Assembly (NCBI GenBank): GCA_905331295.1
Contig: CAJNYD010000075.1
Span: 1 to 47,799 of the forward strand
Direction of reading: 5' to 3'
Source of the DNA: Rotaria socialis
Lineage: Eukaryota
Length of the DNA stretch: 47,799 nucleotides
A program made the position numbers and the translations under genes. The notes under the pieces were generated by a model. The model was not told where the DNA came from and searched no databases. It worked only from the letters and a program-made list of their open reading frames with translations. The number at the start of each line of letters is the position of its first letter. Positions within the stretch are counted from its first letter, which is position 1. Below, piece by piece: positions 1,161 through 43,911 of the stretch.

Positions 1161-1285
1161 AATTCTTTTATTTAATTCATTTCTTTTCGTTGAAGGGAAA
1201 GGATGAAAGGAAAATTGTTTTTTTTGTTCATTGATTTCAAAGTATGGAAAAAGGAACGAACAAACAAAAAACAATTTCACAAGTC

Positions 1286-3658
1286 TTATTGGATAAAAAA
1301 TCGTTGAACACGTTCATTATCCCGATCAACGACATAGAGATTACCATGTTGATCGAAAGACAAACCAACGGGGTAGTCGAACTGATTTGCTCCTGCTCCT
1401 CGACCATTTCCACCCACAATTACAGTGCTTTCTTTCGCTCCTTGGGTCCAACGTATTACACGCTGATTCCCCTGGTCTGCTACATAGAGTCTACCCAACC
1501 TATCAACGACGATTCCGACAGGATACTGCAATTGTGTCAGAGCACTCCCTGCGCCTTGTCCTCCAGCGACCACAATACCTTCTTTTGCACCTTTCTTCCA
1601 TTTCATTACACGATGATTGTCGCTGTCTGATACGTAGACTGAATGATCTCGATCGACAAAGAGAAATGTCGGTCCGTTGAGTTGATTGAGTTCAGCACCT
1701 TGTCCACTACCGCCAGCCACGAGAGTGCCAATGTTATCACCCAATTTATATCGTCTTACTTCATGTTTTCCATAGACAGAGACGTAGAGATATCTCTGCT
1801 CATCCATTGCTAATCCAAAACAACCGATGGTATCGATGAGTATTTCACCTTGTGTTGTACCACTACTACGAGACCATCGTACAACTCGGTGATTCCCTGC
1901 ATCACAAATAATGAGACTATCCGTCTCTTTGTCAATTAATACATCAGTTGAAACACTCAATTGATTCAATCCATTTCCTTGGAATCCACCAGCAGCAACA
2001 ACTTGTCCATTCGTTGTATCATCGTTCTTCCATTGCACAATACGACAATTACCGTAGTCAGCAATAACCACTGTTTGGTCATCATCAACAAAGAGACCAT
2101 GAGGGTAGTTGAGTTGATTAGTGCCACCCCATCGCCCGTTGCCTCCAGCAATAGTCCCTCCGTTCTGTGACCATTTAGCATTAGCAGGAATATTAACTAG
2201 AAGAGAAAACATAAGAATAAAAGGAGATCTCTCCCTCTATCGCGCTGAAGTGTGGGCGTGATTCTTCTGCTAATCTATACCCACACCCAATCATGAAGAT
2301 AATTAATCGATCAATCGAAATCGACCCTTAAGAATAGGTTTCTCAGTGGTGAATTGCATTATGGCTATACAAAAACTATTTAGTACCTATAAATTGAAGA
2401 TTATTCGTGCGATATACGGATTCTTGCTTCGCATCGCATTTCGTGTACGAGTGAAACTCGAATACCATCTAGTTTTAGCTCTTAATTTACGGAACACCAA
2501 CACCATTTTTTAGGAGAAAACAACCTGATCGGTAGACGAACACTTTGACTAATTCTGAAATTCAATCACAGGCTATTATAGCTTTCAGAATCATACCCAA
2601 TTTCATTAAGTAAGCTATGAAATTTCTTCATTTGCTTTAAAGAGAAAATAGTAGACCGCAATTTTTCCAGCTATAACTGATTCTGCTCATCTCATACCAG
2701 TACACTTTTCTTACAGGCGACGTCCGTGCTTATATGCAAAGAAAAAAGTAGTTAAGGAGCGAAAGACAATCTGATAATTCTTAGGAGAAACTTGCATTAT
2801 GAGAGTAAAAGGAGAATTAATTTCATAGATGAATTGATGAAGAACGCAATACAACACAACATTTCGCACAACACAAGAATGCAACAGCACAATATTTCTG
2901 CTTTTACTAGACGGATACCGTACCTGTGCGTATATCTCCCGATGCCGATCCTGTATCTGTGCGTATCTCTTCCGATGCCGATACCGTATCTGTGGGTATA
3001 TCTTCCGATGCCGATCGCATATCTGTGCAGACAACGTTGTCGGCGCTACCAGTGTTAGTATAACCAGCATTACAGGTGCATACCATTGCAAATGTAGTTG
3101 GGTCTTCTGAACAAAGAGCATTTGGATCATATCCGCCATTGTTGTCGTCATCGTAGTAGCCTAAAAGAGAGTAGTGGTTGTGAGGGTGTTCGTATCAGTA
3201 CCTGTGCGAATGTCGATGTGGACATGGCTAGTATCGTTCTTTGCTAGTCGACACGGATGATAACTAAATTTCGGAGAGAGTCGGAATTACGTGTATTTGC
3301 CTAGAGGTCCTGTTCGTCCGAATTCCTGAATTTTCAAAAATTTGATGGAATGTGTTCTGTGCATGAGACAGGTTTCGAAATGTTCAATATCACGCCAAAG
3401 GACGTATTCTCGCTAGATTGAAAGTGATATTGTTTACCAGGAAATTTATTGTCGTTGCATTAAGATCAAAGTACCAAGGAAAACCCATGCTACTGTAGGT
3501 ATAGGTTGGACAAGTGTCGTTCGTAAATCTGCAACTTAATGTTATTGATGTGATTCGGCATGAGGCAATAGGGTGGAATAGCTAAGATTGAAATTATGGT
3601 AGATTATTTCACTTGCAAAAGTTGGCAACATCATAGATGCAAGCAACAATATCAGCAT
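1286..3658 (-). CDS. Secreted protein: signal peptide, Cys-containing N-terminal region, degenerate EGF-like domain, 11-aa repeats and NHL-repeat beta-propeller. Exons 3658-3617, 3581-3438, 3412-3291, 3263-3202, 3160-2924, 2196-1286
   Basis: The last exon is a clear NHL propeller (QLNYPHGLFVD, LYVADQGNQRV, YPVGLSFDQHGNLYVVD) behind acceptor tctcttctag. Exon 3160-2924 encodes NNGGYDPNALCSEDPTTFAMVCTCNAGYTNTGSADNVVCT and joins it in phase 1. Upstream exons join in frame by manual splicing to start MLILLLASMMLPTF-LFHPIASC. The NHL exon is high confidence; the 5' exons are moderate. Confidence 0.75.
2246..2288 (+). repeat. Telomere-like inverted-arm cassette (copy A), in the last intron of the NHL gene
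   Basis: tgaagtgtgggcgtg-attcttctgctaatcta-tacccacaccc; near-identical in reverse complement to the cassette at 7158-7206. Confidence 0.8.
2914..3028 (-). repeat. 33-bp tandem repeat, about 3.5 copies, coding (D-x-x-SAS-x-D/E-I-R/P-T)
   Basis: Units start at 2914, 2947, 2980 and 3013 (gat(a/c)c.gta(c/t)ctgtg.gtat.tct.ccgatgcc). Confidence 0.9.
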
Positions 3659-5733
3659 GCGCTTGGTTCTTTTCTCAAGCATACAGAAATGAATTTCGTT
3701 GAAAAATTCATCAGAAAAAAGAAAGTGAAAGCATTTTTGGGATTGCATGAACAAACGTGATTGTTGAACTTTATGTTATCAACTCGGGTTGTCTTAGATG
3801 ACATGAAAGTGTCGCAAAACTATAACGAAAGTAAGAGAACTGAGCGACAGTTCTTATTTTGTTTAGGAAACAAGTTGAATCATTCAGATCAACCAATCTG
3901 CTAGAAGTGTAGCTATCACAACATATATTTTCATTATACAGCAGAATATCAAAGGTCTATAAGATTTAATCTATAAACTTACTTTGTGCAAATCCACCGT
4001 GAAATGCTTGTAACAAGAATACCAGCAATGGTAACCATACATAAAGCAAACAACCATATAATGCCATTTTGCGAACCAACAGCTTCGATTTGTATGAGTT
4101 GGAAAATCTTTTGAAAATGAAAAAAAAACGAGGATTTATAGTACTCGATAAATCTGGCGCAGCGAAAGGGAGCACATATTGAAGAAACAATCGAGCGTGA
4201 TCGCGTAACAGCTTGTGTCCATTAAGTTGCATGATTAGGGGCCAGGCAGATTTCACACATGTGTGTTTGATGAATAGTTAATGATTTGAAAAATCAACGT
4301 CGCATTTTAAATTAATCTAGAAATAGATTTAATAGCATCCCACGTTGTTGTCAAGTACTTTTTTCTGGGTACAATCAAATTTCCAGGATTTTCGTTATCG
4401 TGTCTTCAAGGTCTCCACCTTCAGAAATACGTTTTTTTTTGTAAAACATCGTAAAAGCAAGTTCATAATCATAATAAAAGTCATCGAAAAATGTATCGTT
4501 TTAGATCTTAAAATTTTTGCTGCAACATCAATACATTCACATTATTCTTCTATCAAGATGTGCAACAAGATTTTAGACACCGGTTTGTAAAAGTTTGGTA
4601 ACACGTATCATAGACCTGCAGTTTGTTTTTTATGAGTTTTATTATACTAGTATTTCATACAAGTAATTATATGCGTAGCTTCTCAAAAGAGATACTTTTT
4701 AATTAAGCATGCCGCTATTTAAAATCCTATTGCATGTGAAAATCTTACAGCTGGTTAAAACTATTAATAGTTAATAAACCTATTATATACTTATGCAAAA
4801 TCATGCATATCGATTTTAAATTATCTTCGAAAAGAAATAATTTTTTGAATTAAACAAACAGTTTTTATGTTTTTCTTTCATATTTATTAAAAAAAATTGG
4901 CTATTAAAAATAGTACATCTATTTCTAACATTATAGCATTCTTCAGTTACTTCCTTTTATTCTTTCTAATTCTGGTCTCTAACTGTTCTTTTTTTCAATC
5001 CTGCTCAAACCATATATGAGAAGCAATTTAAGATTTCGTTTGAATAAATATTAAGGTATTCCTGTAGGTATTTAAAATTATATATCTTTTCAGAACTATC
5101 TGTCTATTTAAAAAAAAGAGGAAAAGAGTGAAATAATAAACACTATGTAAAACTTTTATTTAGAATCATATATATGTATATTAAAATTATTTCTCAGAAA
5201 AAAAGATTTGCTTCAATGATACAAACAGTTTATCTATTCGTTTATCTTTAAATCTGTGTATCTATTAAAATTTGTGTATAACTATTTAATTTTTGGAATA
5301 GCTTTTAAAAGATAAATATTGTTATTAAATAAAATACAGTTACTTCTTGCAAAATAAATTAAAATTTATTAAATATTCTATCGAAATATGATGCTTTTTT
5401 AATCTATTATGCAAAATAATTTAATATGAAATTAAAAAAGAAAAAATTCATTCGATGTTTACGATAAAACTTTTCAAGTCCTTATGGGTGTATATTTCTA
5501 TATAAATACATATATCTGATATACTATATACTTATTTTAAATTACAATATATTACACATTTTTTATCTAAAATGAACAACCATTCTTTTTCAAATAAAGA
5601 TATCAAACATACATCAATCGTAATGGCTAGTACAATGTATTAGAAAGTAAAAATTGTTTTGAATACTATCAAAAATCTAATCTTATATCATTCTTTTTTA
5701 ATATCAGAGTTCAACAATTTACCAATATATATA

Positions 5734-7157
5734 CAGTAAAACCTCTCTTATCTGAACACTGTCGGTACTTTCAAAAATCGTTCAGATTAACAGGGTGATT
5801 ACAAAGGACGGGGGTCTGTAGAAATATAGAGATTTTTCGAATTAAATGGCACTATTAGTTCACTTCTGATGAACTGTTGTAATTTATTTATATAAAAAAG
5901 AATTATTTCACAAGAAATCCATAAGATTAAACAGGTACATATTTCAAATAATCCAGAATAGATCTTTGTTTTGATAAAGTAGAATCGAGGAGTGCATCAG
6001 TTGATTTAGACTATAATTCAATAATGAACGAATGTAATTCTGGTTGTTGCATTGTCGAGAAAAAGCGCAGACGACGAACTAGGTCTTAACATTCAGATAA
6101 GGAAGGTGGATCTTCACTTGGAACATCGTCATTCAGTTGATCTTCATTACTATCCCCATCATCATTGATAATTCCGCTAATTACTAATAATTTATTATTC
6201 GAATCATTCCATTCGTTAAATGATGGAGCATTATCATCAATACTCTGAAACAGTGAAACGTAAAAAATGAAAAATATTTTTCAAAATTTCTCTCCCACAT
6301 CTCACCACATAATATCATAGCCAGACATTGGTTTTCCACTGATGGTTAAATGTCTCAATACTCGATCTAATTCTTCAATTGATTTATCTTCTGCAGAAAT
6401 AATTTCATCTGTTATTGAAATTTGTTGTGATGCATCGATTCCATCGATAACAGAAATCTTTTCAAAACCGGCTGATTTGAATGTGTTCCTTATTGTTGTT
6501 TCTGACACTGCTTCACATGCGCCTTAAATCCAATAGACAACATCTAAAGCAGTGATATTAATATCGTCGGCCGTTACAGCAACACCAACACTGGTGATTA
6601 TATGCTTGACTAGATGATGTCGGTAATAAACTTTGAATGCTCGAATAACTCCTTGATCCATCGGTTGAATCTTTGCTGTCGTGTTTGGTGGAAAGATTTT
6701 TAACTTGATATTTTCTAATTGTACATCTGGAGAATGAACTGGTGCATTGTCAAGGAAGAGTGGAATGTGTCTTTTTTGTTTCTGCATAATCAAATCAGAA
6801 TCTTGCAATCATTCAGTAAAAAGTTAACAAGTCATCCGAGAGCTACGATTACTGTACCATAAGACGGGCAACTTCTTCAAGTCAATATTTCTGAAACATC
6901 TAGGCCGGGCTGATTTAACTATAACATGAACAAAAAAAGAGGTACAATAAAATAAAAATTGATGAAGACTAACATACCAATGACAACTGGTTTCAACTTT
7001 TCATTTTCGGCCCAATTGGTGCACAACATCACGGTATAGCGTTCCTTTGATTTATCGCTATTTCACAATCATTTCTGTCTACAGTTAACGATCGATCAGG
7101 CATCATCTTGCAAAAAAGTCCAGTTTCATCGCAATTTAATATGTCGACAGGATCATA
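5734..7157 (-). mobile_element. pogo/Tigger-family DNA transposon, degenerate and 5'-truncated, with an intron-containing DDE_1 transposase
   Basis: TA followed by TIR CAGTAAAACCTCTC at 5734. Minus-strand fragments include YDPVDILNCDETGLF, KLKPVVI/KSARPRCF, LFLDNAPVH, FPPNTTAKIQPMDQGVIRAFKVYYR and TIRNTFKSAGF, with stops and frameshifts. GT-AG introns at 6977-6919 and 6305-6245. Homology ends abruptly at 7157. Confidence 0.9.
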
Positions 7158-7206
7158 GGGTGTGGGTGTGGGTATACATTAGCAAAAGAATCACACCCAC
7201 ACTCAA
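7158..7206 (-). repeat. Telomere-like inverted-arm cassette (copy B), at the pogo / NHL-fragment junction
   Basis: gggtgtgggtgtggg-tatacattagcaaaagaat-cacacccacactcaa. Confidence 0.85.
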
Positions 7207-7286
7207 CGCATTACACGATGATTAAACAAGTCTGCTACATAGAGTGTACCTAACGTATCGATGAAGAGTCCATTAGGATAACACAC
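7207..7286 (-). pseudogene. Isolated ~80-bp fragment of an NHL-repeat gene
   Basis: Minus strand reads CYPNGLFIDTLGTLYVADLFNHRVMR. It is homologous to, but different from, YPVGIVVDRLGRLYVADQGNQRVIR in the gene at ~1450-1530. Confidence 0.85.
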
Positions 7287-7287
7287 T

Positions 7288-7377
7288 TGGGTGTGGGTGT
7301 GGGGTGTGCTAGAAATGCAACTGGTTGTATCTCTCGTATGTATGAATTGAAAGAACGCCCACACCCACACCCTCAAG
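7288..7377 (-). repeat. Telomere-like inverted-arm cassette (copy C), at the NHL-fragment / RT-fragment junction
   Basis: tgggtgtgggtgtggggtgtg, then a ~46-nt spacer, then acgcccacacccacaccctcaag. Confidence 0.85.
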
Positions 7378-7819
7378 ATAGTAAGATTGCATCAATCTTG
7401 AGATTTCTTATGGCACCATTCTTCAAATAATTTGATGCGATCATTTCGTGGTATCATGGTGTACAGATTGGTAACGTCAAAAATGACGAATAACATCGAT
7501 ACCACTGATTTAAGTTGTGTTTCGTGCCACTTTCAGGTAGAAAGCCGACAAAAGCTCGTTTAGAAAGTTAGAAACACAGCACTGTAAATCGTTGATAGGA
7601 TATGATCGGTCGTAGTGGCACATGCGGTTGATAAGAAGAACAAAAAGACAGATGATAATATTCAATGAACCTTTTGATTCGAAACTTACTTTGTGTGCTA
7701 TGGAAATAAAGTATGAATGAAGTAGCTCACATTTTGTTCTATCAGGCATCATTAGTCTCCATTGTTCCAAAGTGATGGTTTTCCTGTCTTTCAGATGATT
7801 CAATAACGACATGACTGAA
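7378..7819 (-). mobile_element. Degenerate Penelope-like (Athena/Terminon-type) reverse transcriptase fragment with an intron remnant
   Basis: Minus strand reads MMPDRTKCELLHSYFISIAHK|gtaagt ... VPLRPIIS ... VSNFLNELL ... FDVTNLYTMIPR, matching PLE RT N-terminal motifs and the first catalytic-Asp motif. Contains stops and frameshifts. Confidence 0.8.
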
Positions 7820-7909
7820 CTTGAGGGTGTGGGCGTGGGTGTTTCTCTGCACTTTGCCCACACCCCACACCCCAAACCCACAGCCACAGTCACAGCCACA
7901 GTCACACCC
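7820..7909 (+). repeat. Telomere-like inverted-arm cassette (copy D), at the end of the RT fragment
   Basis: cttgagggtgtgggcgtgggtgt-ttctctgcactttg-cccacaccccacaccccaaacccacagccacagtcacagccacagtcacaccc. Confidence 0.85.
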
Positions 7910-9057
7910 GTCTCCTATTGTTTTCATTATGTTTTTCAAGGTTATGAGGAACTGGAAAAATATACAAAGGTGCCAATTCTAGAATAATAATAAAAAGTAA
8001 ACTGAATCATTCTTGGAAAGGTATCCATTACGTCAAAAATTGTCATAACAGGCATACGAGTCGATCTGCTTTTGGGTCATTTTCAATTTATAATTTTCTT
8101 CTTGGATTTGTTGTGCTTCTATTATGCAGCCTCATGACGAGTATTTTATTTTCAAATAAAAAAGACGAGAAGCATCGGGAAAATTAATTTTGCATTGATT
8201 TCATTTTATTATTTTTGACTCAAACACATTCACATAGTTTATTTTCTCGATTAAACAATGAAAATGAAATATAAAATCATACGTAAAAATACTAATGTGA
8301 ATAGGGTAGTCAAAAAGAAAAAAACTTTTCTATGAAATAAAGCAATGAAAAGAATTGTCTGTTTACTATTCATTATCGAGTGAAACAACAGTCATCTTTG
8401 AGAGAGTGTAAATTGTTTTTTATTATTGTGATCCAAAAGAATATCTTTGTAATTAAAATGTTATTCTCTGATCATCTGCTTTTAGAGAAGTGGATAAAGG
8501 AAACGCAGTGAAATAAACATGAATAAATGTTTCTACGTACAGTAGATGTATGAAACCAACTATCTTAGCCTTGTTCATTACTTCTCATGTTCTTTCAATA
8601 TAATGTTGTTCAATCAAGCAACACAGTGCATTTCAAAGCTATCATAATTTAACCAAAAACAAACAAACTTGCACTTTAAGTCAACAATATATGAGTTTGG
8701 CCTTGTCTGATCATGCCTAGTGTGATAAAAGGCGAGTGAGACAGAAGCAAATTTATAAGGTATCGGAGAAAAAGAATTAAATTTCTTCAACAACATTATA
8801 TTCATAAAAATTTCATTATACTACTGATATAAGAGATTCGATAGCCTTTACAAAGAATACAAGCGTACTTATATAGTTTTGCAACGATTGACAATGAAAA
8901 CGTTAATATATGCTCATGTTACCGTTACACCACGATCAGACAGAGTATTTCAGACATGGTTATATAATAAACAACTATCGAACATTCACCGTTTTTTTTT
9001 AAGTTACAGGTAAAACTCTTCAATAATACGCAAATTCATACAATCGTCGATTTATCA

Positions 9058-11114
9058 ATGATCAAGAAGCATTCAAATCGTGCTAAGCATTTATTGTCCA
9101 AAAATTCATTATTCTCATCCAATCATCAGCAACATGTCGTTTCTGAGCCCATTTCTTCAGTAATATCAACAGATATGGAATTGTCATCACAACATAATCA
9201 TCAGTAAGACAAAAAATTCTCAGAACAATTCCATGCATTATTGTAAGAAAAGGTTACTATATTATATGTCATTTGCTAAAAAGGAATTACTTAACTGGAT
9301 GTTGAAACATGTGATGCAATATTCGAAAATCTTTGATCCATGATAATAAGTTTAATTGGATGATTCTAAATATGTGTTCTCTTTACTGTAGGATATCAAA
9401 AAATAGATTATGGATTATTTCTCTTGTAATAATACTTGTGATAGCCGGTTTCATTGCTCTGGTCATTGGTATTTATGCGCTGATATATCCAATCGGAAGT
9501 ATGACAAGTAAAAAAATAGTTGCTTTTCTTCAAAGTTAAAAATTGATTCTATCATGAATGAAATAGCTTGATCTATATGTTTTTAATCTGAAAAAAATTG
9601 TGAAATAACTTTAAGTCATTTATATCTAGCAGCAACAACGAAGCACACGATAACAACAGCCACTACAATGGGCTCGACAACGACAACTACAGCTACTAGT
9701 AAGTTGTCAACTCGTGTTGATGTTCTGAATCCAGAGTAATTGGAGTTCATAAGGCTTTTACTTAAGTGTTTCAGTACTGCAATAGGACAGATTCAAGTGC
9801 TTTGAACAAAGGAGTCTATGCCATACTTAGTATTGTAAATTCATTTATATTTTCGAAGAAAATAATGAGTATAAATTTCATGGTAGAAGTTTGAAGGCTT
9901 TCCTCTTTACAGGCGTTAGTAACAAAAAAACTTTCGAACAGTAAAGGTCATAGAAGTTCTCAAAGCTTACATCGAAATCTGATTCTTTGCAAATAGATTT
10001 TCGATGCTTTAAATGGTCTATATTCTTATTTTGCTTTAAATAAAGGTTTACATTTCAGATAACAGTGATGATGAGATACGCACTTTGGTAAAATTAGACT
10101 TCTCTTAAAAGTTAATGCAGACGCTTTTAAATTTATCAAGATATGTATGGTGGACTTATTTACCAGTTAATTCACTGTTTTCAAATGATAATAATAACGC
10201 TATATATAAAGAAAACAACATATCCTATGTAGCGAAAACCAAAGATTGAAAGCATTGAGGCGTTGTACATGTGCACTGAGAGGAGACCTCTACTTACTCG
10301 CATTCACACTCTCACACTAACACCTATTGAAGTGGAACCTAAGCTAGAGAATCTTATTAATTGTATTTTAATGAACTATTATCGAAACTTCTCTCTAGCT
10401 ACAACAACTACGGCATTCGTCCCTCAGTCATGTACTTCTGGAAGTCCAACAATGTTACTGAGCTTATTGAATCCTAGTGCCTTTTCATATACAGAATATA
10501 GTTACTCCTATACACCAACAACAGCCCAAGTAACAATCATGATTCAATTTGAACAAGATCCGAGTTCTTTCTCTATTGATGATGTGTCCGTCGTCAACCC
10601 GTCTAGCCCACAACTCCTTAGCAATGGTGGTTTTGAAACCGGAAGTCTTGCACCCTGGCAACATGGCACTGTAGTTAGTGGTAACGTCGCAAGTGGATGT
10701 GGACACTCTGGATCATATTGTTATAACGATGCAATCGTTGGTCAAACAGATAACATTCATCAGACATTTTCAACAGTACCAGGAAACACACTAAATGTTT
10801 CATTCTATTTACAAAACAATTCCGGAGGATCAGTTATCATCGCACGCGCCTGCATTTATCCACCCAGGACGAGCTTTACGACGGTAAATCGCCGTATTTG
10901 GCCGTATTACATGGCTCCGTATTACGATCGTAAATCTCCGTGTCGTAATACGGTGAAATACGTAAAGCGCCGTATTTCGCCGCATACGGCACGGAGATTT
11001 ACGATCGTAATACGGAGCCATGTAATACGGCCAAATACGGCGATTTACCGTCGTATACGACCGTGTATGTTCGACCTGGGCATATTGAAACAATTTCCTT
11101 CTAATTTGACATGA
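9058..11114 (+). CDS. Type II membrane protein with Thr-rich stalk and C-terminal carbohydrate-binding-like (galactose-binding fold / CBM_4_9-like) domain; C-terminus altered by a MITE insertion
   Basis: Exon 1 starts at ATG 9058 (donor uncertain). A TM exon at ~9392-9507 reads LWIISLVIILVIAGFIALVIGIYALI, and a Thr-rich exon lies at ~9630-9698. The last exon starts at 10399 (SIDDVSVV...QLLSNGGFETGSLAPW...VSFYLQN). Splice phases are compatible. Confidence 0.7.
10863..11080. mobile_element. Palindromic MITE (CCC...GGG termini, apparent 2-bp CA target-site duplication; CMC/EnSpm-like by inference)
   Basis: Termini cccagg and cctggg; long near-perfect internal inverted repeat (tacgacggtaaatcgccgtatttggccgtattacatggctccgtattacgatcgtaaatctccgtg and its reverse complement); CA on both flanks. 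Confidence 0.9.
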
Positions 11115-11372
11115 ACAACTATGAGGAGTCCAAGGAACCGAGACATTGCACACAATTTTTGATTTTTGATTAGATATCATAATCTTCTAAATCATTTGTT
11201 TTGACAGCAGCGAAAATAAATACTTAACGAATATAAAGAGAGACTACCATTTTGACGAAATTTACTTTTGCAGAAAAACTGCAAAAATAAATTCCGTATA
11301 GTCTAACCTTATATTGAATTATAATGTCATTGTGTAGTTACATTATAGCACTATTACATAGTGACGATATAC

Positions 11373-11435
11373 AGGGTGCTGGTGTGGGTAACTGCTCTCT
11401 TAACATGCCCACACCCCACACACACACACACACCC
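11373..11435 (+). repeat. Telomere-like inverted-arm cassette (copy E)
   Basis: agggtgctggtgtgggt-aactgctctcttaacatg-cccacaccccacacacacacacacaccc. Confidence 0.7.
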
Positions 11436-12576
11436 AATGAAATATCATTAAAGCATTAGTTTGATCTTGAGTATGAAATTCAATTATTAGTGGATTCCAA
11501 ATTCCAAATATATTTTAAACAAATCGGTTTTGTCATGAAGTTGGGTTCAACATTAGTTATACTAAAGTTCAATAAACTCACCGATGAATCCAACTAAAGC
11601 CGAACGTCAAGTATTTATGACATTGGTACTAGTGAGAGCTAGACCTACAAACTGCAACTACAATTAAACATTAAACATTTATTCTCTAATTCTAATTTTT
11701 ATTTTATTTGTCTATCTTTTTCACACTCTATGATTTTAAAAACGTTGTTCTCTCTTTCGATTCTTATTCACTTATAAAAAATTGTTTAATATTGACTCCG
11801 AAAATTCTTTTTCGTAACATTTTGAATTATTTTTAATGTATAGTTCATCAGTATACTCATTTATCTGTAATTTTCTCTTTCGTCCTTTTACTATTATGCA
11901 GAGCCGTGAAGAGTGTTCTATCATTAAAATAAATAACACGAAACGCGTCGCCGAAATAAAATTCTGCATTTCTTTTAATTCAAGCACAATACAAAATTTA
12001 GTATATTTATTTTTGACTTTGATCGATTGCTGAAAAACAAGAGTTGGGAATAGCAGATTAATTTGGCTGCTTTGTTAAGAGATAGGTTAATCTGTTTTCT
12101 AATTGATAAAGTTGGCCTCTATCTTCCAGAACCACACTTTTCGCACGGTCAGTTTTATACAGGATGTTCAAGAGCAAAAGGAATCTAATGGTTTAAAAAT
12201 TCAAGTAAAAGATACCACTAGACAGGGGAAAACGGATAATGGGCAAACAGTAATGGATAATGTTGTTCATCGGGAGATTTTTTCGTGAATTCCATATGCC
12301 TAATGTTCTGAGTCTATAACTTTAGTATTTCCTTTTTTATTTAATAATTCAAATAGCAATCCAAAAGTTTTTATTAAACCAATTTTTTCTATAATATTAA
12401 AGTTCAGTTGTTCACATGGGCCTTTAATTTATAATTATAATTGATATAAAAATTTATCTGTGATCGTTGTGGCTGTTTCGACATAAAAGTGTTGGTTCGA
12501 ATTTTTTCATTTATTTTCGAAGTGATATTAAGCTTTCAGAGTTTCATTTATATTCGAAGTCGAATTAGGTAACTCA

Positions 12577-14094
12577 TCAATCCGATACCAGGCTATAAAT
12601 TTTTGTATTAGCACATTTAGGACATGCTTTACCACCACAATCTATGTCAGTTTCATCTTGATTCTTCACACCATCGCTGCAATTGGGTACTACAGAGCAG
12701 ATAAAGAACTACATAATATTTTATATGAAGAAAAATATACCTTGACAGGTTTTAGATTTGCACACTTCACTAACACAATCTGAGTCGGCTTTGCAGGTTT
12801 TTCCATTGGGACATTTTGAACATTTTTCACCACCACAATCTATATCAGTTTCATTACCATTCCTATAACCATCGGTACAAGTGGGAGCTAAAAAGAGAAA
12901 AAGTTAGGAAAAAATTCGATTCATAGGTAGACTAAAATTCTCATGGCATGTTCACCATTATGTATGAGTGTTCTGAAAAGTAATCCTGAAAGTCAACCTT
13001 TTCTCAAACTTATGTAGATGCGAAAAGAAAGATTGATATAGCGATTGTTAAGACGATTCAAGAAAACTTTTCTAGTGAACTTCATTTGAATTGTTTTTTT
13101 GCAAAAACGTGGAACTATTGTTTGAACGATTTATTTTTATTATTACATCGATTTCAATGGTTGAGTATTGTTCAAATCGACCTCCATATATTTAATTGCC
13201 AGCAACATTTTGAGATTTGGATATGGATATGCGAGTTGCATGTATGATGAAGGGCAATAGTCAATTCAAAATGCTTTCGTAAATTATCATCAAATCCCAA
13301 AGGATCCGTCCTACGAACTGTAATACATGGGACGAAGTTTAATCGAGACGTGCACTTGTATCCTTTCTCGAGTCGAATAGTCTGAATAAATGACTAAAAG
13401 CGTCACTTTTTAGTTTAAATCTAAACATTAGCACTTTTTGAGTATCATATGTCTTAAAATCGATTTCCGAATTCAATATTAATTGTACTCCATCTAAAGA
13501 TGATAGACAAAATCCGTTCGAAATTGATTTTGGTAGAAAATTGACACACGAGGGTAGAAATGAACAAAGAGAAGGACAGATAGCTTCGCTAGAAGAATTA
13601 AAAATAGTTTGTTTTATATGTCTAAATAAATTATGTCGCTGTATTATCGGTTGAGTCGGGAAAGTTATGAATAATTAAAATGTGGTAGGTGAAGATGATG
13701 ATTTTTGCTTGAACATCATCCTCACACCCATAACTATATTCACCCTCAACTTTGTAAAAGTTCTGCTCTTATGCAGTTAGCATACCTTTACATCTTTTCT
13801 TGTCGCAATTACCGCTCGAACACTGATCGTTATATCTGCAAGGGGCTCCATCATTACCGCTCTTCATATCCTTGCTGTGAATCACTGAAAATCGACCTAG
13901 CTGAAGATCATCATCCAGCTAGAAGAACACTACAGAAGTAACAAGAGAATATGTATATAGATGAAGGTAAAGACACAAACCATTTGGGCCACATTGTCGC
14001 TTTTGAAATCTTCCTGTGATGACATAGCCACATTCAAACAAAATACAAGAACACCAATGGTTAGCCACATCCACCTATCAACAAAGATTTTCAT
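12577..14094 (-). CDS. Small secreted Cys-rich repeat protein (CxDGxxNxxETDIDCGG repeats). Exons 14094-13981, 13918-13786, 12887-12741, 12689-12577; last repeat truncated
   Basis: Manual splicing gives MKIFVDRWMWLTIGVLVFCLNVAMS...GAPCRYNDQCSSGNCDKKRCK-APTCTDGYRNGNETDIDCGGEKCSKCPNGKTCKADSDCVSEVCKSKTCQ-VPNCSDGVKNQDETDIDCGGKACPKCANTKIYSLVSD*. All introns are GT-AG with compatible phases. Missed by the ORF track. Confidence 0.85.
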
Positions 14095-15208
14095 GAACTC
14101 TCTTTCATATCACTGATCTAATTCGGTAATTGAAGGTCACAATGATAAACTGGTATACTCTTGCAGCTACTAATGGCTACATGAAATATTCCACCAAAGT
14201 ATACAGCAGTGTTGAAGAAAACAAATAATCATTTATGATTGTTTTCATTCTCAATTTTTACTTAAAATATACATTTCATATGATGGTTTCAGCTTTTAAT
14301 GACTAAAAACTTCTATCAAAATATTTATTCCAACAATAAAGATTCTATTTTTTCCGATGACCAGTGTAGTAGTACAGGTAAATTTTTCTTATAGTATATG
14401 TTGCGATAAATCCTTCAATCTTGAGGATTGGTTGTGGGTAACAGTGAGAGATTACTATAAACTCTCGCTCACTAGTCAACATTCATCACATTCTTACATT
14501 CACGGTAGTAACCTTTGATAAAATTGTTACCTAAAAAAAGTATTTTTCAGCCTTATCGCAGCCTAGAATCTGCTGATGAAGTATTGTGAGATCGATATCG
14601 ACACTTAGTCATGACATATACACCTGAAATTTCCCAACTATTCTTATGTTAATGGCCGCCAACTCTAACTGAGAATAGGATCTCTGATATTCGTTTTGTT
14701 CATACAAATCTCATCCTAAAGAGCCGTTCCTATTTTTTCTCGTGTATCACTAATTTCAAACGATTACGGCCCTTTTTCTTAACTCAATTCGTAGAATGAA
14801 AAGAAAAATTTAGCTTTTAAACGAAGCTAGATAAAAACAGTAGACTTACCTTTTTACGTTTCCATGACGCCTTTGACGTATTTGCATTATAATACCCGCA
14901 AAATTCGAATTAATCGAAAAATCACACTGAATATTTCCTGGAAACAGATATATATGTGAATAGATATGAATATATACATGTAGCGATTGATGTAACAGAA
15001 AAACTATTGAGTTTAGATATGACAAATAATATCCGTGACATCAATTAATCTATAGTGCATCATTCTTTTACAATATCGCGATTTTTTGTGTCTCTCTACT
15101 TCGTCACGACAATTAAAAGTAGAGACATATGAAACTAGATATTAATTGTACAGAGAGGAACGCAAATCCTGATGGCTTGATTTTTTTCTCTACTCCTCTA
15201 GTAATCAT

Positions 15209-15410
15209 TAGGATGCGCCAGCTTCATCTCAAAGTTCAGCTCTTCGGAACGAATGAACTGTTCGAACGTTCTTTTTCATAGAAACTGAACTTTTTCAACA
15301 GCTCTTTTTCAAGAACTGGTTGGCGAGATAACCCTTGAAAATCATAGAGACCATCCTATCCCGTCAACAGTTCCTTCGTTCAGAGCAAAAAATGAACTGT
15401 TACATCCCTA
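15209..15410. mobile_element. Decayed hAT-like MITE
   Basis: Right end gaactgttacatcccta and decayed left end taggatg; flanking 8-mers gtaatcat / atagtcat match 6 of 8; internal gaac/gttc repeats. Confidence 0.55.
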
Positions 15411-16670
15411 ATAGTCATTTAATCGCGTGGGAAGTACAGTTCATAGTAAGAATATAATCGAAATATCTATCTATAGTGCTACTAAAAATATATTCCTTAG
15501 AGGAGAAAAAAATCTAAAGGAGTGAAAAATAATGTTGATCATACATACTGTTAAAACCTGATTAAAAGCGCATAGCGCGCGTTACTTTTATCTAACAGCC
15601 ACAGATGGCAATGTAAACCATACTAATTGGAAATCAGCACAACAAAAAGCGAATCCCTTCGCCAATTCGATACTAATTCCAATCGTTTGAAGGCCTTTCA
15701 CACTAATTTAAAACAATAATAACTATCAGTAATGCAAAAAGCCTACCAATAAAATGCATGCGACAGGTGGAAAAAAAGAAATATGATAGTGCTATGGTTC
15801 GATTTTATTTCAATTTTTCTAATATTAATTTAAAAAATAGAGTATATGAGCGCCATTAGAATGATTACTTCGTTTTCTTGATCATTTTAAAACGACAATA
15901 GAGACAACGAAAAAAGACTACCTTTTGTGTTTGAAAATTGAACTTATTGGAATATCACGTTGCTACTGCTAATTATCTTATTAATGCAGTTGTTTTTACG
16001 ACGAATCTGAATATGTGTTTTTTTTTAAACTTCCAATGAAACGAAATATTTTTTTAATTGAAAAATCATCAAACTCGAGGGTAAGGGTATGGGTATAATA
16101 ATTGAAGACAAGTGATTTGTATCGTAGAAACCATCTTATTTATTTAAACATGTCTTAACTGTATTGATAGAATGAGTAGATTTCATGTTTGCATGTGTCA
16201 TATTTGGTGAGAAGAATTTGTTTTTCATTTCAGAACCGCAAACTCTACGATATGAGACGTGACTTTTCACCTTGGCCGTCGGAGCAAAGAATATGTGAGG
16301 ACATCAAAGACGTTGTCTAGATTCCTAATCAAAAAATAGAAAGAGATTCATATAATTGATGTTCCAAACATTCTTTATCTGTCACTGAATTCTTACAATG
16401 TAGCTCCATTATTGGGATCCCGGAAAATATTTCTGTTATAAGTTTATGTTTTCCTGAAGATCTTTATTATTAATTCAATAAATTTCTTTCAAAAGCAGCT
16501 CTGTTAAATGTCAATTGTTCAGCTTTAGAAGATTTTATGGTACACTATTACATTGCAATACAATAGTCAATAACATCACTTCGCTGCAATAGTAGGCACT
16601 GCTATGGTGAAGTATCGTGATTCTCTCTCATTGTCATGCGTAGCATGATTTCTGCATTTGCAACATAGAA

Positions 16671-16730
16671 TTGAGGGTGTGGGCGTGTACCCTCACCTTT
16701 CAGTCCAATAGACACACCCACACCCTCGAG
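16671..16730. repeat. Telomere-like inverted-arm cassette (copy F), with the conserved TYGAG end on both arms
   Basis: ttgagggtgtgggcgtgt-accctcacctttcagtccaataga-cacacccacaccctcgag. Confidence 0.85.
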
Positions 16731-19358
16731 GTTAAGGTTAGAATTAAGGGTTAAGGATAGAAATAAGAGGCTAAATATGAAATCAACGGCTGGATATAGC
16801 ATTAGTGGCGAGTACTAGACTAATTGAGTGTGGCGGACTACATTTTACCACTCTAGAACCACTTTTGGAAGAAAAAGGAAAAGGTTCCAGCTAGAACCAG
16901 ATTTTGCTTGAGCTTTAAATGGTTCTGAAAATGGTACTCAAATCTAGAACCTTAAAAGATTCAGTATGGCACCTTTTTTCTGAGTATTCATAACGGAAAA
17001 CTAATTTGGCAATGTCGCATACCTGCGTGAGTCGGTTACTGATGTGTAGCTGTGGGAAACGTTTAACAGGTTCCAGAAGTATCGGAAACCTATAAAGGGT
17101 TTCATATAGTGACAAACCCGGAAACCTCTTATTCGTTTCTCAGAACACGGATTTTATTTCGAATGTATCCGATTTTTTAATAAACAAAAGACAAACAATG
17201 GTATCGGCCTTTAATAAAACTCACCTTTCAACGAATGATTTCATTAGCACTTCGTTTCGAATTGTTTTAAATCATTAGATTTCATGAAATACCTTGATTT
17301 TCTTTAACAATATTAATGAGTTCTAGTTGAAAGCAGCGAATACTATATATGAGTAGTCTTATTAACAAAACGCTGCATAATTTAAATGGTTAAATGGTTC
17401 ATTTTTTTGAACAAATATTTTTTTCTATTTCATGAGCATTACGATAGCCCACGTAAATTATAAAACATTCATTTATACGAAAAGTTTTAATTTTATCTAT
17501 GATAAGCCGTCAAAACGTGTGCGTTTTTTATTCAAAAATAAAACCAACATTGATATTGAAGAAAAAACCACAGAAAAATAGATGGCAATTTGAAAACTAA
17601 TTGATGATATAAAACTATTCTTTTTTTAATCTTTTGTTGCTGCCTTGTTTTGTTTGTTTTCGCTCTAAAATGAAACTAGAATAATTTCACTTTGCATATA
17701 TGATTCTTACTTTTAATAAATTCTTCTACATGCTCATATGTAATTGAGTTTAACAAAGTCATAAAATCTATATTGTCTAAAACTACAACAAATATTTTCG
17801 ATCACAGATTTGTTAAGAAGGAAGCAAAATTTTACTACCTTGTTTGTTGACGCAATCTTTCATGGCGTCTCGAATTTTACTCATTTGATCGTGAATTTTT
17901 GATTTCCTGAATAATCAAAATGAAACTATTTATGTTAAAGTGGAGACACAGATATAATTATTATATCATTTAAGAGCCATCAAAGAGTCATCAATCTTTC
18001 CATGTTGCTCGACAAACTGAATATTAGTAAGTACATCTAAAGAAGAAACCTGCATACTGATATATTAAAAAACTCTTACAGGTACCTTCCCAGTTTTTCA
18101 TCTCGTAAAAAATAGTTGCACGTTTTGAATAGTATTCAATCAGATGAGATGTATTAGTAGATGAATTAATTAGGTTTTTCAAAAACTAGAATTAATGTCC
18201 TAATAAGTCAAAGAGAAAAAATGTAAAATATACCTTTAATTTCTCGACATTTGGATAGTCGACATTTTCAAACACATAGTTGTATTGAGATAACATTGCG
18301 AAAGATAAATAGTTAATAACTAAGAATCGATGATATCAACTTAAATTTTTGCTGTCAGTTGTTTGTTGTGTTCGTCTTATATATATATTGAATAGAATCG
18401 AACTAAATAAAGAGAACAAAGGACAAGGAATCGAAGAATCAGTCTATAATGTGATTAATCAACCAATAACGACGAGTAGTTAGATGAAAATGAGAATAAC
18501 GAATCCTATTAATGGCATCTGATTTCATCCTTAGTATATCAAAAAAATCCACGGTACAAAATCGAAGTGAAGGCTGAAGGTATTGTTTCGAATTTTTTTT
18601 TCTTCGAAAAGATTCTGAAATAATTAGCTTTTTAAACATTCCATAGATAAAATTGAACATTGTCGAATTCTACGTTAATTATTGTGGAGATCACACATAT
18701 TTTTGAAAAAGCTGTTAGCGCAATCCCTGTGGGATCAGAATGTAAAACACGATGTAGTTGATTTTTCATAAATACGAAGATAATTGAGGTTGATACAGCC
18801 CATGTCCCAAAAATCGACTCACTTTTGACGATTAATCGGGATTTTTCAAAAATAAATATACTAGAATATTCTATGTAAATAAAAGTTTATTTTTTATTAT
18901 TTTTAACTACGATAGAATCAACTTGAATTGTTTTTATGCGATATTTTATAAATTAAATACATCACTATAAGAGAAACTATTTCAAGTTCTAAAAAAACTG
19001 TTGACTTCAGTTTTCAAAATAAAGCTCTCGTTGCATTTTGAACTATTTCAAGCAATTCTCCGTAAAATTCTGCATCTTTGAATGCATGTTTTCGAGTTTT
19101 GCAAGAAACATTTGGGAGACAGGTTTGTTCCGAATTAAATTCTACATCGGATCGGATCGGATGTGTATGTTTGTGTTTTTATGTGATTACTAGCGACACA
19201 TTTGTAAGAATCTATTGATTGGTGCAATCTGACTATTCCACAATTGATCAATATAATCTATCTTCATTTAACTTCATCACAACAACACGATCTTATTTGA
19301 ACTACTATTCCTATTTTTTTTTAGTATTTTGATTATTTGTAGCAAAACCAAAACAACA

Positions 19359-22300
19359 ATGGTTAAGACGAAAACAAAACCTAAAAAACGTCGTACATTT
19401 GCTACTGATAAACATAATTCAAAAACTCGTGTCGATACAGTAAATAAAGTCAATCCATTTGATCTTCATGTTAATCGTTTAAAACATGATGTACTCGGTA
19501 AAAAACGTAGCTATGAAAGAGGTGGTCAACCACTTAAATCTCGATCACGAGGAATAGAAAAAGTATTTAATCAATTTTTTTGTGTTGTTTTTAATATAAT
19601 TTTATTTCATAGAGAAAACGTACACTATTAAAAGAGTTAAATTCAGTATTTAAACGAAATACATTTATTGATCATCGTATTGGTGAAAATGATCCAACAT
19701 TAACAAATGATGAAAAACTAATGCAACGTTTAATTGCAGAGCGAACCGTTAGTCTAATTTGTCAAATTCTATTTTTAATTAATTAATATCTTTTTTTTTT
19801 CGAACAGAAAATGCGTCCTGGTAAAGAAAGTCGTTATAATTTAAATGACGAAGAAGATTTAACACATTATGGTCAATCACTTTCGAAATCCGATGAACTC
19901 AATCAAAAGCCAATTATTGATGATTATGATGATGATGATGATTTACATAAAGGTCGTTTGAATTCTGAACATTTTTTTGGTGGTTTTAAAGCTTCAATTG
20001 AACAACGTAAACCACAATCAAAACAAGAATGGATTGAAAGTATGATTAAAAGTACAAAATTAGATAAATATGAACGTCAACGTGAAAATGAAAAAATCTT
20101 CGATATGACACAAACGCTTGATGAACAATGGAAAGCATTAAGTACAATTATGGGTATTAAAGATAAAAAACCGAAAGAAACAAGAGAAACATCGGATGAT
20201 TATGATAAACTTGTGGCTTCATTAAGATTTGAAGCAAAAACAACCGTTCGTTATTAAATTACTCATTTTAAAAAAGAGATCTTAACTTTTTTGTTGTCTT
20301 TTTACTCGCAAGGGTGCACCAGTTAAAACTATTGAAGAAACAGAAAAAGAAACAGCAGAAAAATTAAAAACATTACAAGTAAATAAAATAACATAATCAA
20401 ATTTTCTATTTAATTGGTGAATCACAATAGGTTGAAGAAAGACAACGTATGGAACAACCAACATTGAAATCAATTTTAGCAAAAAATAAACCACAAAAGC
20501 ATATTTTTGTTGAAGAATTAGATGAAAGGTTGGAAAGATTTTTTTTATTTCTAAAAAAAATAAAGTTTGTCAAATAGTTATTATATCATGGATGGATCGA
20601 AAAAACGGGTGACATTTGATGATGATGAGGCTATGAACAATGAGCCTGTACCACCGATCGAGTCAGATGAAGTAGTACCACATGAAAATGATTCGATGGC
20701 AATGGATAATGGAGAAGGCGAAGAAGAAGAAGAAGAAGAAGAAATTGATCAAACAGTATGCTCTATCAAACTTTGAAATATTGAATTTCATCGTTTATTT
20801 TAGACAAATGGCGATTTAATTGCAGAATTCGAAGAAAGTATGTTATTTGAATTTTTCTCACTCTGAAAATAATCCAGTTTATATGCTTAACACTACAGTA
20901 GACTTTCCAAATCTTGAGCGACTAAGACAGATCTAAGAGGTTGAAATAGATTCTAGTAAAATTTTCTTAGTTTCACTCAAACTTGCCCATAACCATAAAA
21001 TGAAGCCGAACAGCTAGTTATCTTCGTTTGCCCTTCTAGAAATCTATACATTTGTACACATTGTATTTTTCATTCTAGTTCCATCAGATATTGAAAAACT
21101 TCAAACTCGTCTATCTGAAGATAAAAATGCATTGAGCACTATCTGGAAACGAATCAACGATAAACGATTACCGCCTATACCAAGATTAGTTTTAAGTGTA
21201 AGTTTGTGTTTTTTCTTTATGTGCTAAAATAAATGTCATTCATCATCTAGAACTATTTCGATGTTCTGCTGGATTATTATGAATCAGTTACATCAAATCA
21301 AACGTTGTTGAATCACATTGGTAAAAATCTTCTTCACCTAGTACAATTAGCTAATAATGAACAAACAAAAGGCAATATACAAAGTCGCTTAAGGCAATAT
21401 CATGATAATTTAAGTGAACAAATTGAAAATGGTAAATTTTGCGAAATAGATTCATCATTCGTACGTTATGTCACGGCTTCTGTCTTTTTCTCTCTAATGA
21501 AAATTTCCTATTATTTATTAGATTGTTTTTTTTAAATTAATCGCTCATCTCTATCCAACATCCGATTTTTGTCATCCAATAACAACACCAGCCATAACAT
21601 CACTTGTTCAAGCGATAAATCATGTATGAATTCTATTCGAAAGAATTAGGAAAATTTATTTTCTTCGTTTTTTGTTTTTTTAAAGAGTTCTCTAAAATCT
21701 CTTCATTCATGTCGACAAGCATTATTTTTAATTGGCTTAGTAAAACAAGTAAGACAAGATTCATAAGTAGAATTTACTTCTATAACAAATTTTTTCTTCA
21801 GTGGGTATCAAAAAGTCATCGCTACGTTCCAGAAGTCACTGTTTTATTAACAAAATTAATTCAACTTGCATGTCCAATTGAAAAATCTCAATATGTTATA
21901 ACCAGTTCATCGAAACAGATCAGCAATAATCAATTACTCGTTTTGAATAAGAATAGTGACTTGTAAGTTTCTAAAAATCTACGACTACTTGACCTTGTCT
22001 CATACGCCATGTGGTGGTACCCTTAACTTTCGAATTGATAGCTAAACACATTTCATCTTTTATTTTATTGAGATGCATATAAATGTCACCCGAAAAATGA
22101 TCTTAATTATTTCGATTTTGATCAAAACATTATGAAAATTTCTTTATAAACTTTCGATCTCATTACAATTATGAGTTCAGTTTATTTCCTAGATAATCAG
22201 CATTGATTTTATAGGAGCATTTTCATCATCATTAGAACACTTCAATGAAAAACTACATATTTATATTTTATATTATTTTTTAGATCAAATTCAAATGAAC

Positions 22301-27579: not shown

Positions 27580-28420
27580 TAGTAAAACCTCTTTACATGG
27601 GCACCCCTATAACACGGGGCACCTCACTTGTATGGACACTGGGCGGAACGACCGATCAATTTTTGCTGAGTATGAGTCTCTCTAACAAGTGCACCTCTAA
27701 CCTCGAATAATGGGCATTGTTTTTTCAGTCCATAGTGCACATTTACCTCTCTCACATGGGCAGATATAGTGAATGTTATAATAAGAGTATAAATACTATT
27801 GCTTTTCTTACATCACATATTGATATCATGTAAAAAATGACGTCGTGCCATTATCTTCCTATTGATAAGAAGATTGAATTGGCCAACGACTACGGTGATG
27901 GACCTGGGCTATCATAACGCGTAAGCTATGTGAGAGATACAAGGTATCGAGGGTGCGGGTGTACTTCTTTTATGAAATCACGCCCTACATCCACACCCCA
28001 CACCCAACCTCCTTCGCTCGTTGATGCACTTGAAATGGTTCGAAAGCTCCATCTACTCGCCAACCGGAACTTCATCAATTCGTCACTAATCTGAAATCAA
28101 AACTTACTGATGCCTACATCGAATCAAAAACTAACCGGCAAAGTTCAATTACAGATTTCTTTCGAAAAGCTTGACTGTAAATATGATGATAGAAAATAAA
28201 GTTAAATAAAAAAACTAATCAAATAAATTATACTACAATATTGGACACTATTCAAGATATAAATACCGATTGTATATATAAGTATCGGTACTGTCTATTA
28301 TGTTGCTTGTGAAAACATTAGTAATCAGTATATATTAAAAATAACTCTATAACGCGGGCACCGTAGGATGGGCGATTTTAAAAAGCCCCGTGGTGCCATC
28401 CAAGGGAGTAATTTATAGAT
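27580..28420 (+). mobile_element. Internally deleted pogo/Tigger transposon, related to the 5734-7157 element
   Basis: TA followed by TIR-like (T)AGTAAAACCTC. The HTH N-terminus remnant (MTSCHYLPIDKKIELANDYGDGPGLS...KLCERYKVS) is joined via a cassette to the C-terminus (QPPSLVDALEMVRKLHLL...ELHQFVTNLKSKLTDAYIESKTNRQSSITDFFRKA*). The right TIR is decayed, so the end is approximate. Confidence 0.85.
27947..28005 (+). repeat. Telomere-like inverted-arm cassette (copy G), at the internal deletion breakpoint of the pogo element
   Basis: tcgagggtgcgggtgt-acttcttttatgaaat-cacgccctacatccacaccccacaccc. Confidence 0.8.
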
Positions 28421-42959: not shown

Positions 42960-43359
42960 AAATTAGTTAATTGATGTCAGATATGAAATAAAATTTGTGA
43001 TGTGTGTTATCTATATGTGTCCAATAAATAGGTTTAGTTTCTTTTTCGTTTCATAAAAATCATTGAAATTGTGGAAAAAAAACAATATTACACGAGAGGA
43101 AATTGCTCTATTGTAATTAACTGGGAAAGAATTGAAGTTTTCTATTAGACTAAGATAAATAGTATTGCTACTCAAATGCATCGGATGTTGCGTATTTGAA
43201 AATAATCTATCGAATGTGATAATCGTTGGTTGTTCACAATCTTTTAATACCAATTGAAAAATATATTTGCAGTTCTTTTAAATCGTTTTATTATGGTGTT
43301 GTTGTATGGATGACCAAAAAAAATGTGGATTTTTATCAAAATAGTCTGGCGTCCACTGG

Positions 43360-43911
43360 ATGGCAGAAATGAATTACAAAGTAATTCTAAAATATGAATT
43401 ACAAAATAGTTCAAATTCTGTTACTGTCTTTCAAGTGACTAAGCAGGTACCATCAGGTACTAGCAGGTACTAGTAGGTACTAGAAGGTACTACCAGCTAC
43501 TAGCAGGTACTAGTAGGTATTAGCAGGTACTACCTGGTGTGGGTGTGGGTATGGGTGTAATTGGTCCCTAAAGTGAAATTACGCCCACACCCACACCCTC
43601 AAGGTTTGAAAAATCGGATATTTCTTGTGATGCTAGCGTTGAAATTGAATCTAGATCTATTGCACAATTTATATAATAGGAATATGTAAACATACAAAGT
43701 AAAAATATATGAGTTCTTTTATTCCAATTTAAATAACATAGCCTTTCTTTTTATGATTGTCCATTCATGTTCCAAGTCGAATTCGGCTGCTACCAATCTT
43801 CCAGTACCTTCTAGTACCTGGTAGTACCTGGTAGTACCTTCTAGTAATAACTGATACATGTATTAGTTGTATGTGTAAATTTTGAATTATTTTGTAATTC
43901 ATTTCTGTCAT
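43360..43911. mobile_element. MITE-like foldback element with imperfect TIRs and inverted subterminal 10-bp repeat arrays (AGGTACTAGY)
   Basis: atggcagaaatgaattacaaa at 43360 vs tttgtaattcatttctgtcat ending at 43911. The array at 43444-43533 has its reverse complement at 43802-43846. Confidence 0.75.
43535..43603 (-). repeat. Telomere-like inverted-arm cassette (copy H), ending the 10-bp array
   Basis: tggtgtgggtgtgggtatgggtgt-aattggtccctaaagtgaaatt-acgcccacacccacaccctcaag. Confidence 0.85.

Follow-up and report, generated by a model that had tools for sequence, protein, structure and literature searches.

Short telomeric tracts at internal chromosomal sites have been described in several systems. 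The interstitial telomeric sequences (ITS) of vertebrates include the TERC-ITS, whose types B and C reproduce the RNA sequence immediately flanking the template on its 5' or 3' side; three of 41 TERC-ITS are head-to-head, which was attributed to a second enzyme (as described in the available part of PMC8537989). In bdelloids, the telomeric repeat is TGTGGG in Adineta vaga and TGAGGG in Philodina roseola (PMC7943196, supplement 10), and neotelomeres are reported at deletion breakpoints of A. vaga in the accessible portion of PMC13564844. In the literature on bdelloid telomeric structures, no title was found on the cassettes described below or on a bdelloid telomerase RNA; such cassettes may be described in Gladyshev and Arkhipova 2007, Arkhipova et al. 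2017 or their supplements. The window analysed here is a whole stretch of 47,799 nt of AT-rich animal DNA from Rotaria socialis (contig CAJNYD010000075.1 of assembly GCA_905331295.1, forward strand). It contains eight cassettes (A to H), each consisting of a G arm, a spacer and a C arm, so that arms made of telomere repeats face each other. In the reading that we favour with some reserve, these cassettes are telomerase-type repair scars joined nose to nose, and one of them, B, was copied from a whole A-like scar. The cassettes and three related one-armed sites are as follows.

Cassette A, 2249..2289: short G arm, spacer and C arm, in an intron of a unit of the high-copy NHL-repeat gene family
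Cassette B, 7158..7203: inverted near-copy of A, linking a 5'-truncated pogo transposase to an NHL exon fragment
Cassette C, 7288..7377: spacer of 48-54 nt, trailer at 7348-7360, leader at 7368-7377 (minus strand)
Cassette D, 7820..7880: leader at 7820-7829, GGGCGT variant
Cassette E, 11381..11436: spanned by the X2 contig 11344-12103
Cassette F, 16670..16730: leader at both ends, adjoining a high-copy repeat whose unit starts at 16729
Cassette G, 27946..28005: links the first ~35 codons of pogo to the last ~60, trailer at 27973-27985
Cassette H, 43536..43603: trailer at 43574-43586, leader at 43594-43603, GTAATT after both arms
One-armed site, 16074..16110, plus strand: leader, then decaying G-strand repeats without C arm
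One-armed site, 14417..14455, plus strand: leader, then decaying repeats (read by eye)
One-armed site, 13715..13750, minus strand: partial leader, then decaying repeats

All eight G arms of the window meet a C arm within 90 bp and all cassettes have the same head-to-head polarity; the same count found no pair across 30 order-3 Markov simulations. The short TGTGGG runs are cassette arms at internal sites and thus fit the host-repeat definition of short ITS. Arm length varies from 1.5 to more than 12 repeats. Hairpin folding gives z < -2 for six cassettes, and an earlier reading made from the letters of this DNA (hereafter the sequence-only reading) had claimed that in H the stem extends through GTAATT/AATTAC; folding bears this out, the stem being longer because both arms continue with GTAATT. 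For comparison, a scan of metagenome contigs gave 63 loci, of which 24 that were AT-rich and had the same anatomy were kept by eye; the 39 left out were GC-rich hairpins, perfect-hairpin families and duplicates, plus L049 and L065, which entered the flank comparison and part of the Pfam analysis below. This gives 32 cassettes, hence 496 spacer pairs, and a set of outer ends comprising 16 from the window and 45 from metagenomes. Loci L028, L034, L054, L062 and L080 belong to another family of repeats, in which the TGTGGG hairpins are long and perfect and the tandem units measure 50 bp. The masked flanks of the metagenome loci showed no similarity among themselves or to the window, Pfam analysis of 92 of their 119 open reading frames (ORFs) assigned families to seven and yielded no mappable junction, and a search of the ESM Atlas with an ORF of L035 found no match.

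The cassettes are very probably scars at breaks. Four features of the left part of the window, all on the minus strand, bear on this.

1286..2206, minus strand: last exon of an NHL-repeat (beta-propeller) gene from a high-copy family (Pfam NHL, E 2e-29)
5733..7157, minus strand: decayed pogo/Tigger-type DDE_1 transposon, matching from residue 160 of ~526, exactly at B
7204..7288, minus strand: 85-bp NHL exon fragment between B and C, 75% identical to 1449-1537
7378..7819, minus strand: decayed fragment between C and D, possibly a reverse transcriptase (a lead only)

The order at B is therefore pogo, B, NHL piece and C, then the decayed fragment, then D. The nearest named relatives of the pogo transposase at 5733-7157 come from Rotaria magnacalcarata, R. 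sordida and R. socialis, the best having 80-89% identity. Contig depth and flank continuity were read in sequencing runs X1, X2 and X4, among the matches listed, and this scope holds for all contig data given here. Contigs of the NHL family run past both ends of the 7204-7288 fragment, where B and C cut it, and other sequence is found just before 2289, in A, in 27, 16 and 17 contigs of X1, X2 and X4, respectively. At G, pogo residues ~1-35 are joined to ~458-521, about 430 codons being absent; the N-terminal piece is weak (shuffle p 0.001-0.45 in eight comparisons, seven of which align to the N-terminus); a hidden Markov model search missed it and pairwise tests found it weakly. Retention of host DNA between two nicks, as an origin of spacers, does not fit B, whose spacer does not code for the missing pogo residues. 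The decayed fragment at 7378-7819 hit an RVT_1 cluster of the ESM Atlas at 0.87, under the 0.9 line of the tool, and a word search gave no homologue. A predicted protein of R. magnacalcarata, P0042, fuses the same type of NHL exon to the same pogo DDE region. The NHL gene unit (1200-5500, introns included) is present in very high copy number, its summed depth in X1 reaching up to ~1000x that of unique DNA; for the last exon (1286-2206) this depth is 4e4-6e4 versus ~50-65 for unique DNA.

Inverted arms with a recurrent outer end and the capacity to fold into hairpins could also be expected from a miniature inverted-repeat transposable element (MITE), or from its excision footprint, with telomere-like ends and several subfamilies. 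The sequence-only reading had offered such micro-element subfamilies as one option. The cassettes do carry terminal inverted repeats, but their ends are ragged and nested instead of fixed, and their arms are variable tandem arrays instead of being uniform in length. In addition, the outer motif is inverted and not a direct duplication, no target-site duplication was seen by eye in the cassette flanks inspected, the cassettes lie at deletions and fusions, and one-armed versions exist. A transposon of this type is thus disfavoured and appears very unlikely.

The first mark that recurs among the scars is found at their outer ends, 13 of the 61 carrying a leader, ATCTYGA, directly before the repeats. 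Its shorter versions form a nested series (ATCTYGA, CTYGA, TGA, GA). At least five letters of AATCTYGA precede the first GGG at four of 16 window ends, versus two of 232 other GGG sites, and at nine of 45 metagenome ends, versus four of 369 other GGG sites. With at most one mismatch, CTYGAGGGTG occurs nine times in the window (1.04 +/- 1.12 expected): six times in cassettes, twice at one-armed sites and once elsewhere. Tracts that begin with the leader and decay without any C arm are found at 16074, 14417 and 13750, and long degenerate tracts starting with the leader are found in L050, L073 and L058. In L073 (77-216), a leader-led, strongly degenerate G-strand tract of ~95 bp runs directly into another leader with a complete cassette behind it, which looks like a restart of synthesis. 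A sequence common to the outer ends L043:1560-1570 and L058:802-812, TTACGGCTG, stands before the repeats and is a possible second type of leader.

The second mark is a trailer located at inner ends. The three matches to the sequence TGAAANNACGCCC in the window all adjoin the C arm of a cassette, namely C, G or H, and the right ends of C and H match at 28 of 30 positions over trailer, arm and leader. GGGCGT has six of its seven window occurrences in cassettes, and the five window occurrences of GGGYGTRATT are all in A, B, G and H; three of five GGGCGT ends have a 5-mer in common at one offset (p 0.0003-0.0006). Beyond ~10 bases the trailers diverge. Hence, of the claim that the spacers other than those of A and B are unrelated, one part stands, seven of the eight window spacers being distinct, whereas another does not, given the TGAAANNACGCCC shared by C, G and H and the resemblance of C to H. 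Leader and trailer both recur and keep to the register of the repeats, which points to a shared template; whether they come from the flanks of a template RNA is, in our estimation, evenly balanced. A further inner end, TGTGGCTGG, is common to L064 and L066.

Whole spacers do not recur in this way: A/B is the single full-length pair among the 496, and none of the 24 metagenome spacers has a full-length twin. Seven of the eight spacers in the window and all 15 in one metagenome assembly being distinct, a small set of master spacers copied whole, as a narrow form of the finite repertoire proposed in the sequence-only reading, is not supported; the other proposal of that reading, that spacers are not pure random filler, is upheld by the shared descent of A and B and by the recurrent leader and trailer. 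If the 15 spacers belong to one species (they may belong to several), 20 or fewer equally used types have P <=0.0008, and 50-100 types are possible on these counts. Partial pairs are L040/L066 (13/13), L031/L070 and L043/L088, the last with 93% identity over 73 bases, arms included, and four pairs score at least 20 versus 0.55 in shuffled sets. Spacers are purine-biased by strand (0.17 versus 0.109 +/- 0.015, reached by 0/2000 shuffles). When the 31 pooled spacers are read on their purine-rich strand, the TGTGGG register persists in hexamers 2-4 (138/375 versus 109.5 +/- 7.0; 0/4000), the main substitute for G at register positions being A (93 A, 46 T, 18 C, 118 G); in spacers without internal GGG, this signal has p 0.015. 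Two other origins of the spacers were set aside. Pure C-to-T decay of a hairpin loop is disfavoured, since substitutions affect the T positions too (36 A, 24 G, 35 T, 9 C), and local templated copying of spacers C to H finds no template for any of them within the window.

Both trailer and spacers could instead derive from abortive cDNAs of Athena/Terminon elements, if new G-rich ends base-pair with (ACACCC)n at the 3' end of their RNA and the first 10-25 bases are copied; the element families supplying the spacers would then be many but limited in number, close to the templates imagined in the sequence-only reading. Terminon 3' ends with (ACACCC)n or (TCACCC)n beside a hammerhead do pair with G-rich ends (in the part of PMC6431247 at hand), and Athena fragments lie at deletion breakpoints of A. 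vaga (in the part of PMC13564844 at hand). The trailer of C, G and H, the identity of A and B, the partial pairs L040/L066 and L043/L088, and counts compatible with 50-100 spacer types also agree with this origin. However, it leaves unexplained the leader, which would sit 3' of the repeats of the RNA, as well as the fact that A and B have the same junction and the same arm end; the trailers diverge after ~10 bases, and there is no hammerhead among the three Rfam matches of the window at E<=1, although minimal hammerheads could escape. We therefore regard it as unlikely, if the least so of the alternatives to telomerase-type scars.

Cassettes A and B show a relationship of another kind. As the sequence-only reading had claimed, the spacer 23-mer of A and the reverse-complemented one of B differ at two of 23 positions. 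Over whole cassettes, 38 of 41 positions are identical when A (2249-2289) is aligned with reverse-complemented B (7163-7203), the mismatches being at 2257, 2267 and 2275. Their spacers are the best of the 496 pairs, with a score reached by 0/3000 shuffles, and a degenerate pattern of the A/B spacer matches only A and B in the window, two matches being found in none of 100 shuffles. A and B also have in common the inner junction and an unusual arm end, AGTGTGGG, and they match at 13 of 15 positions beyond the trailer-like part. Given this agreement in spacer, inner junction and arm end, two independent syntheses are not expected; judged on sequence, A and B share descent. In the 12 bases outside the AGTGTGGG end they match at eight (0.44% of window 12-mers reach 8/12), one being intron there and the other exon. 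Their other flanks are unrelated (300 bp, or 84 bp right of B; within shuffle range in four of four comparisons), in line with the sequence-only reading, in which no shared flanks had been seen. B is probably a whole-cassette DNA copy of an A-like scar, and it fits an NHL end that switched template onto such a scar, which was copied whole into a patchwork junction.

Two other histories could link A and B. In the first, they are remnants of a single duplicated NHL unit with an intronic cassette that was later scrambled, in keeping with the NHL exon fragment adjoining B, the location of A in an NHL intron and the high copy number of this family. Yet the fragment is only 75% like the gene of A, versus 93% between the cassettes, the orientation relative to the exon is opposite and the 300-bp flanks are unrelated, which makes this history extremely improbable. 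In the second, scar-to-scar copying is the main route for all cassettes: ends invade old cassettes through their arms and copy leader, arm and some or all of the spacer, so that leader and trailer are inherited from DNA. The matches of A with B (38/41), of C with H (28/30) and of L043 with L088 (93% over 73 bases) are what such copying would leave. Nevertheless, the same leader is found in this genome and in unrelated metagenome contigs, arms range from 1.5 to more than 12 repeats, and a first source is still required; as a main route, it seems to us quite unlikely.

Under the favoured reading, that of telomerase-type scars joined nose to nose, the formation of a cassette can be pictured as follows. 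Each of the broken ends would be extended by a telomerase-type reverse transcriptase. The enzyme would prime on a few matching bases located 3' of the repeat template, thereby writing the nested leader (ATCTYGA, CTYGA, TGA, GA) before GGG(TGTGGG)n. Synthesis would end either by read-through of the 5' boundary of the template, giving the trailer CGTRATTTCA in this genome, or in increasingly inaccurate A-rich copying, so that the spacer would mostly consist of one or both tails. The tails would then be end-joined. Lastly, microhomology-primed template switching may carry a copy of an existing scar into a new break; B would be the product of such an event. The TGAGGG variant could arise by misalignment into the leader, and one short RNA template would also give a variable number of repeats. 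The sequence-only reading had taken the shared spacer as an argument against pure de novo telomere addition; the leader and trailer modify this model and do not oppose it. In its widest form, which we put forward tentatively and with more doubt than conviction, bdelloids would routinely join breaks by telomerase-type capping of both ends, with the flanks of the RNA template written in and old scars reused as bridges, and 43574-43603 would closely reproduce the template region of the telomerase RNA, which could be read out from thousands of scars.

Several observations weigh against this reading. The position at a junction is shown for A, B, C, F and G out of eight cassettes; family copies continue differently at A, B and C, G covers a deletion, and none of the contig pieces listed spans A or B. 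The motifs of leader and trailer were chosen on the data on which they were tested, and their p values are optimistic because these motifs were defined after inspection; three trailer matches at one mismatch were reached by one of 100 shuffles. Within the window taken by itself, the register signal does not reach significance (27/85 versus 24.2, p 0.24), and in the pooled set it drops to p 0.15 without the six strongest of the 31 spacers. A polarity with purines on the left and pyrimidines on the right was not found (14 versus 14), hence a symmetric two-tail spacer is not the rule. The three mismatches out of 41 between A and B are more than a recent copy should have; they suggest age, error-prone copying or a third, unseen donor copy. 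Only two of the 24 metagenome loci, L067 and L074, are linked to bdelloids by their proteins, the named protein matches of L067 being mostly from Adineta and Rotaria. No gene for the template RNA was found, there being no telomerase RNA among the Rfam matches of the window, and one survey did not find TERT in A. vaga (PMC5405514, in its accessible part). As TERT is missing from that survey, the enzyme may be an Athena-type reverse transcriptase. A bdelloid TERT has reportedly been cloned earlier.

Other searches were less informative. No RNA holder was found for 1200-11100 of the window. The A/B spacer pattern had no match in collections of genome contigs and viral contigs, and the leader-plus-cassette pattern had none in the genome contigs, both collections being so poor in animal DNA that these blanks mean little. 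The generic cassette pattern matched viral contigs 26 times, at 42-73% GC and never with a leader; these matches were dismissed as unrelated hairpins.

Depth also distinguishes the block that contains C and D. The X2 contig covering 7230-10757, which includes C, has a depth of 35 versus 63 for 12219-16758. X1 agrees with X2 on this block (37 versus 50-67), and X4 mostly does (~5 versus 11.5), except at 7230-7862 (depth 16.6). Several contigs thus show about half depth over 7230-12103, and this cassette-rich block with C and D is probably present on one homologue.

The window also carries other inverted-repeat elements. H lies inside a larger foldback- or MITE-like element (43355-43916) whose inverted ends lie at 43355-43404 and 43867-43916; within it, a 10-bp repeat forms inverted arrays at 43442-43532 and 43798-43860. 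At 10877-11055, an element with 71-bp inverted repeats (99% complementary) breaks the end of a CBM_4_9/DUF642-like ORF and has an Rfam match to mir-2941 below the gathering score. An element at 45927-46477 has perfect 88-bp inverted repeats and, by eye, a short transposase-like remnant. By their motifs, 25548-27115 looks like a MADS-box (MEF2-like) gene and 19272-23030 like a NOP14-like gene, which marks the right-hand side of the window as normal gene-rich DNA.

Bdelloids survive massive DNA breakage, which raises the question of how their ends are rejoined outside homologous repair. Scars such as these mark and orient past breaks, and the case of A and B suggests that they seed further rearrangement. 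The leader and trailer, set in the register of the repeats, predict a short specific sequence of the template RNA that can be searched for in public assemblies and RNA data, and finding this RNA would show whether telomerase or an Athena reverse transcriptase makes the scars. What the cassettes add to known telomeric scars is a putative, testable footprint of the template.

Compared with the systems described so far, in each case from the parts of the cited sources available to us, the cassettes resemble vertebrate short ITS and TERC-ITS in being short telomeric tracts found at repaired breaks, with deletions and extra bases (PMC8537989, PMC7215372). Unlike TERC-ITS, bdelloid scars are head-to-head as a rule (eight of eight in 48 kb), have A-rich error-prone tails and were apparently recopied whole, and the origin of their leader and trailer from template flanks is predicted from the scar sequence. 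As in the neotelomeres of A. vaga, the bdelloid repeat TGTGGG was added at internal breaks; unlike these neotelomeres, which cap unrepaired ends, the cassettes are two caps joined intrachromosomally, with leader and trailer (PMC13564844). They share with the endonuclease-deficient Athena/Terminon Penelope-like elements reverse transcription primed on G-rich ends and short telomeric stretches at junctions (PMC6431247, PMC3846280), but these elements are head-to-tail with a hammerhead by (ACACCC)n, whereas the cassettes are inverted, 40-90 bp long and devoid of any hammerhead match. Fusion-type ITS such as human 2q13 are also head-to-head telomeric arrays (PMC7215372), but this one is a one-off fusion of true ends, whereas the cassettes are many, have arms of 1.5-3 repeats with a spacer and lie at internal breaks. 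Finally, insertions templated by microhomology-mediated template switching place short pieces copied from nearby DNA, frequently in inverted orientation, at the junctions of rearrangements, which is what we propose for B (PMC8421209, PMC11724301); unlike in these insertions, the piece copied into B would itself be a telomeric scar.

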